Positions 2,830 to 9,745 of a stretch of 28,227 nucleotides of DNA are shown here, one piece after another. The notes below the pieces were generated by a model, which was not told the origin of the DNA, searched no databases, and saw only the letters and a list, made by a program, of their open reading frames with translations. A program made the translations under genes and the position numbers. Origin of the DNA: Candidatus Woesearchaeota archaeon (GTDB lineage: Archaea > Nanobdellota > Nanobdellia > Woesearchaeales > DATGWN01); assembly GCA_047602725.1 (NCBI GenBank), contig JBLKON010000001.1, forward strand, positions 1 through 28,227, read 5' to 3'. The stretch's first letter is position 1. Each line of letters starts with the position of its first letter.

Positions 2830-3468
2830 TTATATACTCTCGTAAGTTCTTGTTGCTGTATGATATACTAATGATTTATGTGATGTTTGTAAAAATGCAA
2901 CTATATGTTCAGCTACAAATTGAGGTGTATGCATAATGTGTTTTTTTTTGTCAATTGCTTTTTTACTTAATCCTTGATGTGCAACAGGTGTGTCTGTTGG
3001 TCCAGGATATAACATACGTACATCTAATTGTGGATATTCTTTTTCGAGTGCTTTAGCAATATACATCATGGCATGTTTAGTTAATCCATAAAATACAGGA
3101 TTAAAAGTAATATGACGTGCATGACGTGATGCGTTAAAAACAACTGTTCCTTTTTTCATCAAAGGTAACACCATTTGTAGGGTTATCATCGTTCCTTTAA
3201 TGTTTACTTGATACAAGTCATCCATATCTTGCAAACTTGTTGACATAATATCTCCCCTACGCATAATGCCAGCATTAATAATTAACATATCTACTGGTGC
3301 TATGTCAAGGGTATGTAATTGAGTAATATCTAAGGTGAGATGTTGATATGCTGGGTGAGTAAATGAAGATGGTACGCAATCAATTCCAGTAACCGTATGT
3401 TGTTGACATAACAGTTCTACTAACGCTAAACCAATACCGCTACTTGTTCCTGTGATAACTATATGCAT
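2830..3468 (-). CDS. Short-chain dehydrogenase/reductase (SDR)
   Basis: TGTSSGIG nucleotide-binding loop, NAG motif, YGLTK (YxxxK) catalytic motif, PGPTDT. Confidence 0.85.
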   Translation of the reverse strand: MHIVITGTSSGIGLALVELLCQQHTVTGIDCVPSSFTHPAYQHLTLDITQLHTLDIAPVDMLIINAGIMRRGDIMSTSLQDMDDLYQVNIKGTMITLQMVLPLMKKGTVVFNASRHARHITFNPVFYGLTKHAMMYIAKALEKEYPQLDVRMLYPGPTDTPVAHQGLSKKAIDKKKHIMHTPQFVAEHIVAFLQTSHKSLVYHTATRTYESI

Positions 3469-3537
3469 AAGGTATTATGAGCATAAAGCCTTTTTATAGT
3501 TAATTACTTTTATATAGATGTAGTTGTACGTATTTGT

Positions 3538-4617
3538 ATGCATATCCTTTGTATGTGTTCCTTTGGTCTTAATCGAAGTAAGTTTTGTGCTATGCTTTTA
3601 AGCCTGTATGGTTATACAACCCAATATGCTGGTATTAATGCACAAGCTCCTAATCCAGTTTCTTGTGCACATCTCCATAATGCACAACACATTATATGTA
3701 TGAGACCACCTATCTATGAAGCATTTACTCAACAATATACCACTAAAAAACCAGTAACTATACTTGATATTAATGATAACTATAAAAGATATGATACACA
3801 GGCTCAACACATTGCTCAACAAAATATTTGGCATTTTCAATATAGGTATGTATATACACAAATATGGGAACAAGTGCAACAATTTGTATTATCTACTCCT
3901 GTATATCGACAATGGAAACATCCTACGTCACAAGAATTGGCATACATTAAAAGTGTAGAAATAGCAGTAAGTTTTTTGTTATATCATCATAAAGACCTTA
4001 TACGTACTATACTTGTTAAAGGAAGTTTTGTAAGACGCGAGATGAATAAAAAAAGTGACATTGATGTTGTAGTAATACTCAAACACAATAAAGATATTAT
4101 GATGCTTCAACAATGGGTGCAAACTTACAAAGAACTGTTTAATCCTGTTGAATTTTCAATATATTCGCTGTATGAAATACAACGTAATAAAAAAAGCAAA
4201 CAAAGAAATGATAAAAAACTTACCTCACCTCATACAAACGATCAACTACAGCATATTATGCATATATGGGGTAAGCATCTTTATGTTACCACATATCCTA
4301 AACGTTCAGCACAACAAAGATATAGAGGATTACAACATGCGTTTATCAAAGATTTTATTCCACTGTATTACAAAGGTGAATTTACCTTTAGTTCTTTTGT
4401 AAAATGTGTCTTATGGTTAGCTGAGTACGAACAACAAACGCAAGGTAAACAACCTAGTGCAACGTGGCAACAATTAGCTACAACATTACCTAAAAACCAT
4501 ATAGGAAAACTAGCGTATGAGTATAGAATGCATCCTGTTAAAGATGTTGCTATAAAGCATGCTTTTGTGAAAAAAGTAGAAAGCTATCTATCTAGTTCTT
4601 TTGATAAACAAGAGTAG
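3538..4617 (+). CDS. Fusion of LMW protein-tyrosine-phosphatase-like domain and Pol-beta-type nucleotidyltransferase domain
   Basis: N-terminal CSFGLNRS (Cx5RS P-loop) with later LDINDNY; central GSFVRR...SDIDVVV (GS + DxD); helical C-terminal region. Confidence 0.7.
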   Translation: MHILCMCSFGLNRSKFCAMLLSLYGYTTQYAGINAQAPNPVSCAHLHNAQHIICMRPPIYEAFTQQYTTKKPVTILDINDNYKRYDTQAQHIAQQNIWHFQYRYVYTQIWEQVQQFVLSTPVYRQWKHPTSQELAYIKSVEIAVSFLLYHHKDLIRTILVKGSFVRREMNKKSDIDVVVILKHNKDIMMLQQWVQTYKELFNPVEFSIYSLYEIQRNKKSKQRNDKKLTSPHTNDQLQHIMHIWGKHLYVTTYPKRSAQQRYRGLQHAFIKDFIPLYYKGEFTFSSFVKCVLWLAEYEQQTQGKQPSATWQQLATTLPKNHIGKLAYEYRMHPVKDVAIKHAFVKKVESYLSSSFDKQE

Positions 4618-5086
4618 TCATTCTTTTTGCATGGGTATCCATGACATGACCAGCATCAATACCTTTTAAGCAATGTGGAACGTGTGCATATAATAAATCT
4701 TCAACACATTTTTTTCGTTGTTGCGCATTACTCATATAAGCTTGACGTGTAGGAAATATACTTAACAATCCATCAACTGCTTTTTGGGTTAATGCTGGAG
4801 TAATGCGTCCATGTATTGCTTCACATAAAGTATCTAAAGTAGTTTTTTGAATAGAATATAAAAGTTCAGATTTATTATCACCTTGAGTATGATATGTTTT
4901 GGGATAGTTTTCTTCTGTTTTTGCGTTTATAATAATAGGACTATCAGGTAACAATACATCTAATGAAGTTTCAAAAAAAAGTATATTAACTATACCGGGT
5001 AATTTTTTATTATCAGGTACTTTTGGCATATGTGCGACATATAATGCATATATTGCATCAAAAGTATCTTGTTTAACTGTTCTCAT
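4592..5086 (-). CDS. Hypothetical protein
   Basis: 164-aa ORF overlapping the upstream same-strand gene by 14 nt; no recognisable motif. Confidence 0.6.
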   Translation of the reverse strand: MRTVKQDTFDAIYALYVAHMPKVPDNKKLPGIVNILFFETSLDVLLPDSPIIINAKTEENYPKTYHTQGDNKSELLYSIQKTTLDTLCEAIHGRITPALTQKAVDGLLSIFPTRQAYMSNAQQRKKCVEDLLYAHVPHCLKGIDAGHVMDTHAKRMTTLVYQKN

Positions 5087-5594
5087 GTTTTTTTAGTAAA
5101 GCACTTGCTTTTTGTATGGTTGCTATGTCTTGCTCATTAAAGCCCCAATCTTTTGGATTAGGTGTGGCATGTTTCACAATATAATCATACATAGCGCATT
5201 TTGTTTGAATATACAAGGGTAATAGTTCTTGGGGAACAATACCTAACATTTCTTTTTCTGCCTCATAAGTCCTATCTGGATGTTCTATACCATATTCCAT
5301 AAATATCTTATATTCAGCTAAAGCAAAGTAGGGTTGAAGTTTTTGATCTATATCTTGACTCACACCAATGACATAGGGATGCTCCTCTCTTGGATGCCCT
5401 TTTACACACTCATCATCAGGACTTAGCATTGCACGCATAACACCATAAGGTGGAGCTAAATTAAATATTTCTTGCATAAATGCCTGAGGTACAGTATAAT
5501 AATGGATTCCCAATACATCTGAGTCTTGTTTTGTGCCAACTTGTTCAAAAGCATCTGCACAATTGACTAGTTCTTCTAATGTGTTGTATTGCAT
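5073..5594 (-). CDS. Hypothetical protein
   Basis: Start moved to MQYNTLEE (ATG 5594, preceded by AAGGT) so that it follows the 5599 stop instead of overlapping it; no recognisable motif. Confidence 0.6.
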   Translation of the reverse strand: MQYNTLEELVNCADAFEQVGTKQDSDVLGIHYYTVPQAFMQEIFNLAPPYGVMRAMLSPDDECVKGHPREEHPYVIGVSQDIDQKLQPYFALAEYKIFMEYGIEHPDRTYEAEKEMLGIVPQELLPLYIQTKCAMYDYIVKHATPNPKDWGFNEQDIATIQKASALLKKHENS

Positions 5595-5598
5595 GGTA

Positions 5599-6186
5599 TT
5601 ACCTTTTTTGAAAAAAATATAATAATGTTTCAAATTGCATGGGAACTAATCTTGAAAAATCTCTCTGAAGTCTAATTTTATTTCTTTCTTGTATCAAAGT
5701 TCCAATACCGGTAAAATCTTCATCTTCTAATAATTGACTTGCATTGTTATGATAATTATTAGCTAACACATAGCCACTTTGCCTCAAATATTTAGTTAAA
5801 TCACTAGAATTAATACAAGGATTAAGTGCTATTACCAAATCAAATTCAGAAGGGGGAACATAAGTTAGCACATCATGTTCAACAAATTCTCTAATACTGT
5901 GTTTTCTCATAGCTTGAGCAACTTGAGGATCCTTATCCATTAATGTTACTTGCGCATCTAAAAAAGACTCCAATGGACTGATATCTGCATTACAACTAGG
6001 ATAAAAAACGCGACGGGGGTTATATATGGTATCTCTAAAAAAAATATATTGTCTCACTAAATCTGGTGAGCTTGTAGGTACTAGTTCCACTCGATCTATT
6101 TTGATTTTCTTTTCAAAAGATGAAATAGGATTACCATTTTCGTCATGCTGTATCCATTCTTCATATTCTTCTGTCATTGGTATCAC
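5599..6186 (-). CDS. Class I SAM-dependent methyltransferase-like protein
   Basis: VFYPSCNAD (motif I-like), TLMDKD (motif II acidic), HDV, FDLVIALNP (motif IV-like). GTG at 6186 or ATG at 6177. Confidence 0.55.
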   Translation of the reverse strand: MIPMTEEYEEWIQHDENGNPISSFEKKIKIDRVELVPTSSPDLVRQYIFFRDTIYNPRRVFYPSCNADISPLESFLDAQVTLMDKDPQVAQAMRKHSIREFVEHDVLTYVPPSEFDLVIALNPCINSSDLTKYLRQSGYVLANNYHNNASQLLEDEDFTGIGTLIQERNKIRLQRDFSRLVPMQFETLLYFFQKR

Positions 6187-6209
6187 TAATTATTATTACT
6201 ATATAGTAA

Positions 6210-7580
6210 TTACTTATAAGTGTTTCTATTCTTTTTTGCGATATGTATCAACAATTTTTCAACCCCAAACAAAACAAGAATAAACACCCCAACAACTACA
6301 GTAGGGATAACATTATGAAGTAAGCTTGTAAACTGTCCATTTGCAAACATCAAAATGTACACCACAATACCAATGATAAGACTTATTGCTAGCATATAAT
6401 CTTTTGCCTTTGTCATTTTTTTAGTGTATACACCTAAAAATACAATGGGAGAAAGCAAAAACAACAAAGATGTTATATTGATTGCAAAAGTGACAAAGTT
6501 TGTAATGAACATTGCCAATACAGTTGCTACAATAAATAAAAGTATAAGAACTACCTTTATGGATTTTGTATAACGAGTCGTCTGATTATCCTTGTCTATT
6601 CTAAAAATATTAGAAACTAATGTTGATGAAAACATGTATGCTTGTGAATCCAGATTCGACATTATTAATGCTAACATAAGCACTGACAACAATGCTCCAT
6701 ACACTACTGAGACACTTCCATCAAGCAAGCTCATTATTATTGTCTCTGGTCCTATCTCTGGAAAAGTTGAAAACAAGGATATGACCAAAAATATGATCAA
6801 CGTATACATGATAATATATACGACTGGTAGTGCGTATAATGCACGTTTTGCAGTTGTGCCTGACTTAGCCGTAAAAATTCTCTGCCACAAATACGGTAGT
6901 GGATACATCACTAAAAAACCAAACAGAAATGCCCCAAGCGTTGTTTGGAACCCCATAGTATAGAAAGTTGGATACATGTTTCCAATTGATGCAAATGATC
7001 CATAAAGCAATAATCCAACCATCAGTGCTAATGTAAGAATCATCTGAAAGATATCAGTATTAACAACTGTAGCATACCCTCCGATTGTGACATATGCTCC
7101 AACAAATGCTGCAATACAAAGTATAGCAAACCATAAAGGAATTGGAAGCATTGTGCTAAACATAAGACCGCATACATAAATTAGATTAGCTACAAAAGCA
7201 AACATGACTGCTAAGATAATGACGCTAGTCAAGTATGAGATTCTCTTTCCTAATCTATCTTCTATGAAATCATTCAATGTGAGATATTTTGAATTGCGTA
7301 TCCTATTAACTTGAAATGACAGCAATAAAAAAGCACATGCAAATCCAATTGCCAGCCAATATAATCCAAAGTACATACTTGAGGCAAGAACAATAAGTGT
7401 GATGAGTCCGCTTCCATCAATGCTTCCTATAAACTGAGAAGACATCGTACCTAAAAAAGAGACCTTGTTATTACCTGAAATATATTTTTTTTCAGTCTCG
7501 TTTCTTCTAGAATATATCGTTATTGCTATTATGATTATGACATATAATAAAATACTTATTCCTATTGCAATGTTTAACAT
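6210..7580 (-). CDS. Sodium:solute symporter (SSS) family transporter
   Basis: 456 aa, about 12-13 hydrophobic helices; TLNDFIEDRLG, YVTIGGYATVVNTDIFQ, WQRIFTAKS and ALIMSNLDS match SSS conserved segments. Confidence 0.85.
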   Translation of the reverse strand: MLNIAIGISILLYVIIIIAITIYSRRNETEKKYISGNNKVSFLGTMSSQFIGSIDGSGLITLIVLASSMYFGLYWLAIGFACAFLLLSFQVNRIRNSKYLTLNDFIEDRLGKRISYLTSVIILAVMFAFVANLIYVCGLMFSTMLPIPLWFAILCIAAFVGAYVTIGGYATVVNTDIFQMILTLALMVGLLLYGSFASIGNMYPTFYTMGFQTTLGAFLFGFLVMYPLPYLWQRIFTAKSGTTAKRALYALPVVYIIMYTLIIFLVISLFSTFPEIGPETIIMSLLDGSVSVVYGALLSVLMLALIMSNLDSQAYMFSSTLVSNIFRIDKDNQTTRYTKSIKVVLILLFIVATVLAMFITNFVTFAINITSLLFLLSPIVFLGVYTKKMTKAKDYMLAISLIIGIVVYILMFANGQFTSLLHNVIPTVVVGVFILVLFGVEKLLIHIAKKNRNTYK

Positions 7581-7592
7581 TTCATATTTACC

Positions 7593-8465
7593 CTATTCTG
7601 AATTTATAGCTTCTATTTTTCCTAATTTCAAACACTCCATTTCGCTTATGAGATGCGGATTTTCTTCAAAGAATTTCCAGCTTTTTGAAGTGTAGTGCGC
7701 ATCCAACAGTAGCTTTCCGTTGGAGAGTATCCTCATTTCTTTATGAGGAGATGCAACATTAATTGCAAATTTATTATCATAAATGTGCCAATTTTTGGTT
7801 ATTTCTTTACAATCTCTCATGCAATCCCTATAATACTGAACCTGCTCTGATATACCATGCTCCCACGTATCAGCAATTTGTGTATATATGGGAATATTGA
7901 TTTGAGACGACAAACGTAATGCAAAATTTTTCATATCACTCCAATCTATTAATGGTCTCTCATCGTCACTCATCAGCGGATCTAACAGAATTCTATTTAG
8001 TTTTGGGAATTGCAGATGAAGCCTGTTTATATCTGCAAACAAATAATCCATATTCTTTTCAACTGCTATTGAAATAGCATCTACGTACTCTCCTTGAATA
8101 TTTATTGAAGTCCTGCCACCTCTATTGTGATGCAAATCATAAGAGACTCCAATGGTCAATTGATTATTTTCAATAAATGCAATCAATTCTGTGCTTAATT
8201 TATGGCTACCATTGGATTGAATATATCCTTTGATATCACTTCGAGTAGAGAGTACTTCTATGATATTCTTCTGCCCTAAAGGAAGTGTAGGTTCACCTAA
8301 ACCGACAAAAAGCAGAGTGCTATTGAGCGGAATATGCTCTATTAACCTTGGCACCAACTTTGTATCTGGAGCCAACCTTTGTTTATGCAACCGTTCAGCT
8401 ACATTACAGTTTGGACATCTCAGATTACATGTCGGACTTATTTCTACACCTATAGTTACAGTCAT
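7593..8465 (-). CDS. Radical SAM enzyme
   Basis: CNLRCPNC (CxxxCxxC) at residues 13-20, GLGEP (GGEP-like), QSNG, VSYD motifs of the partial TIM barrel. Confidence 0.85.
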   Translation of the reverse strand: MTVTIGVEISPTCNLRCPNCNVAERLHKQRLAPDTKLVPRLIEHIPLNSTLLFVGLGEPTLPLGQKNIIEVLSTRSDIKGYIQSNGSHKLSTELIAFIENNQLTIGVSYDLHHNRGGRTSINIQGEYVDAISIAVEKNMDYLFADINRLHLQFPKLNRILLDPLMSDDERPLIDWSDMKNFALRLSSQINIPIYTQIADTWEHGISEQVQYYRDCMRDCKEITKNWHIYDNKFAINVASPHKEMRILSNGKLLLDAHYTSKSWKFFEENPHLISEMECLKLGKIEAINSE

Positions 8466-8587
8466 ATTCCTATTTGATTATCTCTCAGTACAATTTCATT
8501 GTCATCACTATTTTCAGAGCAGCATAATTCCATTTGCTCTTGTATTAATTTTGGCACTTTGTTATATGCTCCTTTTATTGCTGCCAT
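8462..8587 (-). CDS. Small peptide 2, 41 aa, MAAIKGAYNKVPKLIQEQMELCCSENSDDNEIVLRDNQIGI; putative radical SAM substrate/precursor
   Basis: Hand translation. GAGGTG SD 7 nt upstream, inside the end of peptide 1; its TGA overlaps the radical SAM ATG (ATGA); paralogous to peptide 1. Confidence 0.75.
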   Translation of the reverse strand: MAAIKGAYNKVPKLIQEQMELCCSENSDDNEIVLRDNQIGI

Positions 8588-8589
8588 TT

Positions 8590-8697
8590 TCATTCACCTC
8601 TTTTGTTATAATTCATTTCACTATCTGTTGTCTTGCATTGAAGTTCAACTTCAACAACTTGCGGTACTTTGTTGTGTGCGCCTTTGATAACTCCCAT
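8590..8697 (-). CDS. Small peptide 1, 35 aa, MGVIKGAHNKVPQVVEVELQCKTTDSEMNYNKRGE; putative radical SAM substrate/precursor
   Basis: Hand translation. AGGTGA SD at 8703-8708, TATA-like TTTATATA at about 8737-8744 on the minus strand; paralogous to peptide 2. Confidence 0.75.
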   Translation of the reverse strand: MGVIKGAHNKVPQVVEVELQCKTTDSEMNYNKRGE

Positions 8698-8809
8698 AAT
8701 TATCACCTTATTTACTAATAGATGGTAAATTTTAATATATAAAATAGATTAATATATTATATAATTTATAGAACATTTTATATACTAATTATTATTTATA
8801 TTAAGTAAT

Positions 8810-9745
8810 ATGAAATTTTTATTTAAAGAAACCTATCGTAAAGACAGTCCAATCAAGCTTTCGACTACAGACAAAAAATTAATTCAACTCTTACTTATTG
8901 ATGCACGCACCCCTCTCAAAACACTAGCAAAACAATTACATGTATCAGAACCAGCTATACATTACAAAATAAAATCACTACAAGAAAAACAAATTCTACT
9001 CACCCCTGTAACATATCCTAATATACAACTCCTACAAAACCCCTTTTATATTGCAGAAGTATCAACACTTTTTGGCTCAGACACATTAGAAAACATAAAA
9101 AAAATACAATCTATAAAAGAAATTGCCATACAAATATGGTACTCTGGCCCTTATAATTTAATTTTTTCAATACAACATGAACAACCGCTACTTATTTTAC
9201 AAAAAATTCACAACATCATTCCCATAAAAAACTATCGCTTACGAAAAGTTATTAATATGTGGTACAACCCTCCCCATCTATTTTATAATACAAAAAAACA
9301 CGTTTCCTATACTACTAATACTCCTATACTTAATGAACGACAGAAAGAAATTTTTTCGTACTTAACAGAACATCCACTAGCAAGAATTTTGGAAATCCAC
9401 CACCAACTTGGCTATGCAACAAAAACCATCCAACAAGATCTACTTTTTTTATCTAAAGATGCAATACGAGCTATACTCTATCTTCCTAATGCTTGGGCTT
9501 GTCAGCATGATATCATTTCTACTTCCTTTAAAGTTATAGGTGATATACCAACATTAATACAACAACTCTTAGTATTACCTCAAACTAAAAATGTGTGGGT
9601 ATGTGATCATGAGTGGAATCTGAATGTTGCTTTTTGGGTAAAAAATCCAAGTGAACTTACTCGAATTATTGCACAATTAGAACAACAACATACGATTTTA
9701 GATGTTGACTATGGTATTGCAACCAAAATGATTGGTAAACTCTAA
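8810..9745 (+). CDS. Lrp/AsnC-family transcriptional regulator with two tandem HTH-RAM units
   Basis: LSTTDKKLIQLLLIDARTPLKTLAKQLHVSEPAIHYKIKSL (HTH 1); LNERQKEIFSYLTEHPLARILEIHHQLG (HTH 2); each followed by a RAM-like alpha/beta segment. Confidence 0.8.
   Translation: MKFLFKETYRKDSPIKLSTTDKKLIQLLLIDARTPLKTLAKQLHVSEPAIHYKIKSLQEKQILLTPVTYPNIQLLQNPFYIAEVSTLFGSDTLENIKKIQSIKEIAIQIWYSGPYNLIFSIQHEQPLLILQKIHNIIPIKNYRLRKVINMWYNPPHLFYNTKKHVSYTTNTPILNERQKEIFSYLTEHPLARILEIHHQLGYATKTIQQDLLFLSKDAIRAILYLPNAWACQHDIISTSFKVIGDIPTLIQQLLVLPQTKNVWVCDHEWNLNVAFWVKNPSELTRIIAQLEQQHTILDVDYGIATKMIGKL

Follow-up and report, generated by a model that had tools for sequence, protein, structure and literature searches.

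A 28,227-nucleotide stretch of DNA from a Candidatus Woesearchaeota archaeon (contig JBLKON010000001.1, positions 1 to 28,227; here called the window) carries a small gene cassette built around a radical S-adenosylmethionine (rSAM) enzyme. On the minus strand, seven co-directional open reading frames (ORFs) occupy positions 4592-8697, and a regulator with two helix-turn-helix (HTH) domains of the Lrp/AsnC kind is encoded divergently from them (Table 1). A preliminary description, made from the sequence alone, reported this layout, which is present as described, and interpreted the seven genes, the last two with reserve, as a candidate peptide-modification operon in a DPANN-type archaeon, similar in plan to those for sactipeptides, ranthipeptides and mycofactocin. 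The core of that interpretation, a conserved unit of peptides, rSAM enzyme and regulator, has stood, whereas its seven-gene extent and the analogy to the three peptide classes have not. The assignment to DPANN was right, as the genome shares its GTDB class with a "Candidatus Nanoarchaeia" metagenome-assembled genome and its GTDB family with a "Candidatus Woesearchaeota" one. The assembly comprises 847 kb in 106 contigs (completeness 84.7%), and the genome has been detected in lake-water metagenomes. The 112-nt intergenic region contains TATA-like boxes, and a single promoter is plausible. Same-strand gene gaps of 25 nt or less are the rule over the whole window, so tight spacing alone is no evidence of a functional link.

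Table 1. Cassette genes, control region and downstream neighbors in the window (SD, Shine-Dalgarno sequence; SSS, sodium:solute symporter).
Feature	Position	Strand	Remarks
Regulator, 311 aa, two HTH	8810-9745	+	Divergent from peptide genes
Control region, 112 nt	8698-8809		Spacer; AT-rich, TATA-like boxes and SD of peptide 1
Peptide 1, 35 aa	8590-8697	-	ATG at 8697, GGTGA SD 5 nt upstream
Peptide 2, 41 aa	8462-8587	-	Own GGTGA SD; starts 2 nt past the peptide 1 stop
rSAM enzyme, 290 aa	7593-8465	-	ATG overlaps peptide 2 stop (ATGA); CNLRCPNC
SSS transporter, 456 aa	6210-7580	-	12-nt gap to rSAM gene; Pfam SSF E 6e-16
Class I methyltransferase-fold protein, 195 aa	5599-6186	-	23-nt gap to SSS gene
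Orphan, 173 aa (ATG 5594) or 186 aa (TTG 5633)	5073-5594/5633	-	ORF
Orphan, 164 aa	4592-5086	-	14-nt overlap with the 173/186-aa gene

The rSAM enzyme contains the motifs CX3CX2C, GLGEPT, IQSNG and GxSxD together with His113. The Pfam Radical_SAM model scores it at 23 bits, under its cutoff, and none of the curated Pfam or NCBIfam models reaches cutoff. A word-indexed search returned only nine homologues, at 34-38% identity, while a profile search of 1.84 billion protein representatives found 21 at E<=1e-30, after which matches drop to generic radical SAM N-termini. All named family members are from Nanoarchaeota, Woesearchaeota or Pacearchaeota, and the enzyme is found in 2 genomes of a 401-genome sample of the class. 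Scanning a metagenome collection yielded two true relatives, one of them new; a virus collection yielded none, its single match covering the generic rSAM N-terminus only. The preliminary description had proposed an undescribed peptide-modification system, and in its support the enzyme family is confined to DPANN-type archaea and lacks a curated family match. A literature search for rSAM peptide systems in DPANN or Woesearchaeota likewise found no description. The public protein record (P0001, 253 aa) starts at residue 38 of the enzyme, where GTG is read as Met, and is without the CX3CX2C motif and without Pfam annotation. The genes for peptides 1 and 2 are absent from the public gene calls.

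When 21 family members are aligned, C13, C17 and C20, which form the CX3CX2C triad, are the only cysteines that never vary, and no auxiliary-cluster cysteines are conserved. Other invariant positions include E8, R25, GxGE (55-58), Q83-x-NG, G106-x-S-x-D, H113 and W263. No Pfam or NCBIfam match to a recognition element (RRE) for RiPPs (peptides made on ribosomes and modified after translation) was found in the locus proteins, and the rSAM core begins at residue 4. In the AlphaFold2 (AF2) model of the enzyme (predicted local distance difference test, pLDDT, 89.9), the fold is closest to peptide or protein maturases of the SPASM/twitch group: the best Foldseek matches in the PDB are the anaerobic sulfatase-maturating enzyme (anSME) with bound peptide, SuiB, EpeE, SkfB, CteB, PqqE and TigE, the best fold matches having E of 1e-6 to 5e-4. 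At the sequence level, anSME is the sole notable match in the PDB (E 0.002). The enzyme is thus related to peptide maturases but pared down, with neither auxiliary cluster nor RRE.

The two mini-peptides share an N-terminal stretch that reads VIKGAHNKVP in peptide 1 (residues 3-12) and AIKGAYNKVP in peptide 2, with Gly at residue 6 in both. Across the codons for IKGA(H/Y)NKVP, four of the differences between them are synonymous and one is non-synonymous; comparison of the two peptides gives a proportion of synonymous differences (pS) of 0.68, of non-synonymous differences (pN) of 0.31 and a dN/dS of 0.23. Neither has a Pfam or NCBIfam match, and no curated peptide family was matched. Gene context was counted at 13 distinct loci of the family for which sequence ahead of the rSAM gene was available. 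In 11 of these the rSAM gene is immediately preceded by one or two ORFs of 35-98 aa, either overlapping the rSAM start or ending within 51 nt of it. In L057 (genome G461, 3438-4403) the peptide is instead an in-frame N-terminal extension of the enzyme (MSFVTGTEMFP...) with motif-like copies, and the extended start gives back the usual 118-nt spacer. A motif copy (MGLGVKGTFEDP...) likewise forms the N-terminus of protein P0020, fused to the rSAM enzyme. Small peptides upstream of rSAM homologues, anticipated by the preliminary description, were found in this way, and its IKGAxNKVP-type motif recurs among them in generalized form.

The generalized motif is hydrophobic-x-[K/Q/A]-G-[small]-x3-P-P, of which 14 peptides hold 26 copies. 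Gly is invariant (26/26) and followed at +1 by S, V, A, T, C or G; Pro occupies +5 in 24 copies and +6 in 20. Of 15 N-termini, 14 have the first motif Gly at residue 6 or 7. Where the motif is repeated, as it is two or three times per peptide in several loci (three times, for example, in L001 and L023), the second copy is placed at residue 21-22 and the third at 43 or 52. Nine loci have the full motif, L025, L057 and P0020 have the form with Pro at +5 only, and L060 retains only the V-K-G-C start. Within the window's genome, G-[SAVCTG]-x3-[PV]-P is found in 5 of 2,946 small ORFs (30-100 aa), two of the five being peptides 1 and 2; such chance figures are only indicative, the loci being related. 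A start like that of the motif is also seen in a 153-aa membrane protein encoded just 3' of the rSAM gene in L007 (6893-7354), which begins MAFVNGSSR..., and L001 has downstream membrane proteins homologous to it.

Five of six pairs of orthologous peptide genes have a dN/dS between 0.23 and 0.6 (pS 0.47-0.68, where synonymous divergence is near-saturated), and the most distant pair gives 1.08; by these values the peptides are under purifying selection. Near-identical loci have zero polymorphism within the peptide genes. Peptide type tracks the rSAM clades. A C-terminal tail, [E/D]-x-G-L-x-[KR]-[KR], ends 9 of 14 peptides (in L001, L003, L007, L010, L026, L027 and L056), the window's two not among them, and could serve as a follower or recognition element or as a cleavage signal. 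The conserved N-terminal stretch was considered as a classical leader and rejected as such, since it begins as early as residue 2-4 and related peptides carry it in two or three copies. A modification or recognition unit is the better fit.

Of the two winged-HTH units of the regulator, the first (residues 20-57) is matched by a Pfam HTH_AsnC-type model (E 1e-8) and the second spans 177-217; NCBIfam LrpA/AsnC matches to the regulator fall under cutoff. It is full length and divergent in the loci that reach far enough, with homologues of 34-38% identity in the same position in L001, L003, L007, L010, L027 and L030. In the class sample it occurs in exactly the same 2 of 401 genomes as the enzyme, so the divergent tandem Lrp protein noted at the outset is co-conserved with it. 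The spacer between regulator and peptides is kept at 112-123 nt across related loci and contains conserved blocks (alignment A3): TAGTATATAAAT, a TCTAAATATAAAT-like and a ATTATTAACTAAATT-like block. In three loci (L001:5476-5519, L003:5682-5726 and L007:5457-5502) a perfect 9-bp inverted repeat, CTTAACAAA ... TTTGTTAAG, with a spacing of 27-28 nt, brackets the first TATA-like box, the conserved TAGTATATAAAT. This repeat is a likely operator for the two-HTH regulator. In the window spacer the 9-bp repeat is not clear, and only non-specific AT-rich palindromes are found there. The regulator would govern both promoters from the 112-nt spacer, most likely repressing or activating them on a small ligand, as knowledge of the Lrp/AsnC family suggests.

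The conserved unit is therefore read as the regulator (8810-9745), the peptide genes (8462-8697) and the rSAM gene (7593-8465), which together would make a modified peptide; the probability of this reading is put at roughly 0.6. The peptides are argued to be the substrate of the enzyme because they strictly adjoin it, diversify along with it, repeat their motif and occur fused to it, and because the enzyme is akin to peptide maturases; the motif would be the unit recognized and modified. A conserved precursor gene that adjoins its enzyme gene and is selected as protein, the broad criterion for a RiPP, is present. The cassette product is most likely a chemically modified peptide of a kind not yet described, and it could be secreted or else serve as a cofactor or scaffold derived from the peptide.

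Several points weigh against this reading. On the side of the enzyme, no RRE or other peptide-binding domain is recognizable, no conserved Cys or Tyr beyond the cluster motif could act as the H-atom donor of known rSAM epimerases, and the Foldseek TM scores are modest, at 0.4-0.57. In the AF2 model of the P0020 fusion the motif is undocked, with residues 1-10 at pLDDT <50. As to the peptides, one of the 13 loci (L058/P0021) has none upstream, L060 and L025 have only a partial motif, and the motif was defined after the data had been seen; the context count also leaves out seven family representatives (P0012, P0013, P0015-P0018 and P0020). Genes for a protease, an exporter or immunity are not conserved alongside the cassette. 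A search for RNA runs holding the genome listed none, the DNA holders being lake-water metagenomes.

In the proposed mechanism, the enzyme would bind the motif, represented in the window by IKGA(H/Y)NKVP, and its single [4Fe-4S]/SAM site would produce a 5'-deoxyadenosyl radical. The radical would take a hydrogen atom at or beside the invariant Gly, leading to a modification for which an auxiliary Fe-S cluster is not required. Every copy of the motif would count as one modification unit, and a peptide would thus be modified as many times as it has copies, two or three in some cases. As the enzyme has one cluster and lacks a conserved Cys or Tyr, reactions that require an auxiliary cluster (thioether formation, anSME-type oxidation, most oxidative crosslinks) are unlikely. 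Since Gly and Pro are the only chemically constant residues, we infer that hydrogen is abstracted from the Gly C-alpha or next to it, and favor an outcome that is redox-neutral. A redox-neutral change centered on C-alpha, such as epimerization of the residue after Gly, is put forward tentatively, as an outcome more doubtful than probable. The canonical Cys-dependent epimerase mechanism (PMC8326336) does not fit either, no catalytic Cys being conserved in the family. That the cassette represents a modified-peptide class specific to DPANN, characterized by a single-cluster, RRE-less rSAM enzyme of ~290 aa, a leaderless N-terminal unit that can be repeated or fused, and new chemistry, for example at the Gly C-alpha, is given somewhat less than even odds. 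The product might be used in the interaction between an ultra-small archaeon and its host.

Among known systems, the SPASM/twitch maturases provide the best fold matches (anSME 4k39, SuiB 5v1t, CteB 5wgg, SkfB 6efn, PqqE 6c8v and EpeE 8ai4). They have the CX3CX2C, GGE-type, xQTNG and GxSxD core motifs in common with the enzyme, and in both cases a precursor gene lies directly upstream of the enzyme gene. The enzyme differs in having neither auxiliary cluster nor RRE, and in its length of 290 aa as against 320-450 aa, and every curated model falls far short of its cutoff for it. Of the features of sactipeptide and ranthipeptide systems, the SPASM/twitch auxiliary [4Fe-4S] cysteines are missing from the 21 aligned members, and a PqqD-like RRE is missing both from the enzyme and as a separate protein. 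Donor cysteines are not conserved in the peptides: those of the window, L025 and L060 contain Cys, whereas most others lack it or have it out of alignment; thioether formation through Cys21, 22 and 23 of the window was thus rejected as family-wide chemistry. Mycofactocin systems are recognized by an MftA ending in Gly-Val-Tyr, the RRE protein MftB, the SPASM-type MftC and the tailoring proteins MftD, MftE and MftF. No NCBIfam Mft model (MftA-F) matches any of the nine locus proteins, and the peptides do not end in GVY. The likeness to these three classes drawn in the preliminary description fails on these grounds. The pyrroloquinoline quinone (PQQ) system, with a PqqA bearing E-x3-Y, PqqD and a SPASM-type PqqE, gives no model match either, PqqE being only a distant fold match (TMq 0.37).

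The proteusin rSAM epimerases PoyD and OspD use a SAM cluster only, are leader-independent and act repeatedly along one peptide, and they give a precedent for a single-cluster peptide-modifying rSAM enzyme (PMC8326336). The single SAM cluster is shared by the enzyme described here, but the C-terminal RRE and strictly conserved catalytic Cys of the epimerases are both lacking from it. Proteusin substrates carry long NHLP leaders, and no sequence similarity between the epimerases and the enzyme was detected. In rSAM RiPPs with repeat motifs, a short motif is repeated in one precursor and each copy is one modification site. The cassette peptides likewise repeat their motif, and TigE (8vpo) is among the fold matches of the enzyme; the poly-cyclopropylglycine RiPPs made by TigB/TigE, and the triceptides, have been described (PMC9062424, PMC10878394). 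The enzymes of these systems are leader-dependent rSAM-SPASM proteins whose motifs hold the reacting side chain (Val or an aromatic residue), whereas in the cassette motif only Gly and Pro are constant.

Streptococcal RaS-RiPP operons, such as that of streptide (StrA/StrB/StrC, under Rgg/SHP control), are arranged as regulator, then precursor, then rSAM enzyme. The cassette follows the same operon logic, and SuiB is a top fold match, but RaS-RiPP operons have a quorum-sensing Rgg regulator, a conserved transporter/protease and an enzyme with SPASM and RRE, while the cassette has a tandem Lrp protein and none of these. In borosins the substrate is either fused to the enzyme (OphMA) or split from it (SonM/SonA), and the cassette too is found split or fused (P0020, L057). 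The borosin enzyme is an N-methyltransferase with the core at its C-terminus, so the analogy is one of architecture only. HxsC (TIGR03977) is a small rSAM protein without SPASM that is paired with a repeat-bearing peptide, and it gives a weak hidden Markov model match to the enzyme (E 4e-4); the score is 19 bits against a cutoff of 268, and there is no HxsB/HxsD partner and no His-Xaa-Ser repeat.

Further candidate functions do not fit. A glycyl-radical enzyme activase is represented by an NrdG2 match of E 0.054 and 12.8 bits against a cutoff of 131, with no large glycyl-radical enzyme partner bearing RVxG[FWY] in the loci inspected. The PADLOC match to prokaryotic viperin (pVip) covers residues 7-112 only, the generic rSAM core, and so leaves out the C-terminal nucleotide-binding part of pVip; a defense system in general was rejected, as PADLOC gave only generic matches, to this pVip N-terminal core and a CasR-type HTH. 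Oxidation of Ser or Cys in the manner of anSME is brought to mind by S-x-R-x-P, which resembles the sulfatase S-x-P-x-R; it was rejected because the window has Ala at +1, other loci have Val, Thr or Gly there, and an auxiliary cluster is lacking. Overall, the cassette appears to work like an rSAM RiPP operon, yet sactipeptide, ranthipeptide, mycofactocin, PQQ, proteusin-epimerase, glycyl-radical-activase and pVip systems each have defining features that it lacks.

The genes that follow the rSAM gene in the window have a different distribution. Neither the SSS transporter nor the 195-aa, 186-aa and 164-aa proteins have a homologue in any of 15 related loci. Relatives of the transporter reach only ~25% identity and are found in 7 of 151 genomes of the order; its gene is probably co-transcribed with the rSAM gene, yet it is not a conserved partner. 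The 195-aa protein has a class I methyltransferase fold (TM 0.6-0.74, Atlas structure; 0.6-0.64 to class I methyltransferases) and a weak PADLOC MTase_II match, so the term "methyltransferase-like" given to it earlier holds at fold level. It belongs to an unnamed family, with the motif YPSC(N/G)xDISP, that is common to bacteria of the candidate phyla radiation (Kaiseribacteria, Saccharimonadota) and Nanobdellota, and its homologues occur in 5 of 301 class genomes, never beside other genes of the cassette region. A TATA-like TACTATATA lies ~27 nt ahead of ATG 6177, and the 195-aa gene may have its own leaderless promoter and transcript. The 173/186-aa orphan has no family match and weak metallopeptidase-like structural leads (TM <0.45); the 164-aa orphan also has none, and its Atlas model has a pLDDT of 0.39. 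In the related loci the downstream genes vary by clade and include small membrane proteins, a DedA/VTT protein, a short-chain dehydrogenase/reductase and toxin-antitoxin genes. The transporter, the methyltransferase-fold protein and the two orphans are lineage-specific neighbors outside the system. Co-occurrence of transporter and methyltransferase with the enzyme, proposed as a check in the preliminary description, is thus negative, and the two orphans, whose membership it had left uncertain, are not shared by the related loci either.

L001 and L003 belong to different rSAM clades, but in both the cassette lies between genes for ferredoxin and diphthamide synthase and genes for a DedA/VTT protein and an Fe-type superoxide dismutase (Fe-SOD), and genes for peroxiredoxin, thioredoxin reductase or DUF1858 lie close by. 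Synteny is thus conserved here, in a neighborhood of oxidative-stress genes, and the common flanks suggest old vertical inheritance with many losses and some relocation. Genome G461, from the same family as the window's genome, carries its cassette, of the fused type, on another contig than the RIO kinase gene, which in the window is a neighbor of the cassette. No insertion scar is definable from the comparison of synteny between G461 and the window.

Against this background, the seven genes could still be supposed to form one pathway, in which methylation of the rSAM-modified peptide falls to the 195-aa protein, processing to the orphans and transport to the SSS protein. Co-transcription is likely from their common direction, the gaps of 12 and 23 nt and the overlaps, and both the methyltransferase fold and the faint metallopeptidase-like leads for the 173-aa protein would suit such a scheme. 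It is nonetheless very unlikely: the four downstream proteins are not shared by the related loci, where the genes in that position differ in every clade, homologues of the 195-aa protein occur without the others, SSS proteins are importers, and the short gaps are normal for the window, with a TATA-like box ahead of the 195-aa gene. Somewhat less improbable, though still unlikely, is that the peptide is sacrificed, serving as precursor or scaffold from which a small redox cofactor or metabolite is made, as in PQQ, mycofactocin and carrier peptides. The missing exporter, protease and immunity gene would fit, as would the redox genes around several loci (SOD, peroxiredoxin, ferredoxin, thioredoxin reductase), and enzyme-substrate fusions would suit a precursor of low turnover. 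Accessory enzymes for trimming and finishing such cofactors, however, are not conserved beside the cassette; models of PqqA-E and MftA-F give no match, and the patchy distribution (2/401 genomes) is odd without a conserved user enzyme.

The mini-ORFs could also act as leader or arrest peptides, with aIF5A-dependent pausing at x-P-P tuning the coupled translation of the rSAM enzyme, whose substrate would then lie elsewhere. A Pro-Pro pair after K, R, E or D is a ribosome-pausing context. The motif also stands at a fixed distance from the start codon, translation of the rSAM gene is coupled to that of the last peptide gene (ATGA), and the motif occurs as an N-terminal extension of the enzyme itself. 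The window motif, however, reads V-P rather than P-P, and conservation extends to the Gly, the small residue and the inter-motif and C-terminal segments, among them the GL-x-[KR]-[KR] tails of 9 of 14 peptides. The two or three regularly spaced repeats and the two separate peptide genes per locus also speak against pausing, and a dedicated transcription factor is already there; this explanation is a long shot. The least likely of the rivals is a non-substrate role, in which the peptides are activating or stabilizing subunits of the enzyme or the two-HTH protein is an RRE-like, peptide-binding chaperone. Strict three-way co-occurrence and the natural fusion of motif and enzyme would agree with a partner role, and since RREs are winged-helix folds, a chaperone of this type is conceivable. 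The peptides, however, are of low complexity, repeat-bearing and acidic, unlike folded subunits, and the HTH domains match AsnC-type DNA-binding models. The gene of the two-HTH protein is moreover divergent, its spacer keeps its length, and three loci have a palindromic site.

The usual view of DPANN archaea is that they are symbionts of much reduced metabolism, with hardly any specialized biosynthesis. To our knowledge, few modified peptides are known from archaea at all. A conserved and regulated peptide/rSAM cassette would add a biosynthetic capability to DPANN. With a very small enzyme and a motif of about 12 residues, it would offer a test system for radical peptide chemistry without auxiliary clusters or recognition domains, and the unit to be tested has three parts rather than seven genes. 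The locus also marks a blind spot of genome mining: standard rSAM or RiPP mining would miss it, because the public gene call is without the Fe-S motif and the peptides are unannotated.

On the opposite strand, next to the last orphan, the window encodes a 359-aa protein (3538-4617, plus strand) with a Pol-beta-type nucleotidyltransferase domain at residues 152-216. Its N-terminus contains a C-x5-R-S sequence (CSFGLNRS) that resembles the P-loop of low-molecular-weight phosphatases. The 3' ends of this gene and of the 164-aa gene overlap convergently by 26 nt.

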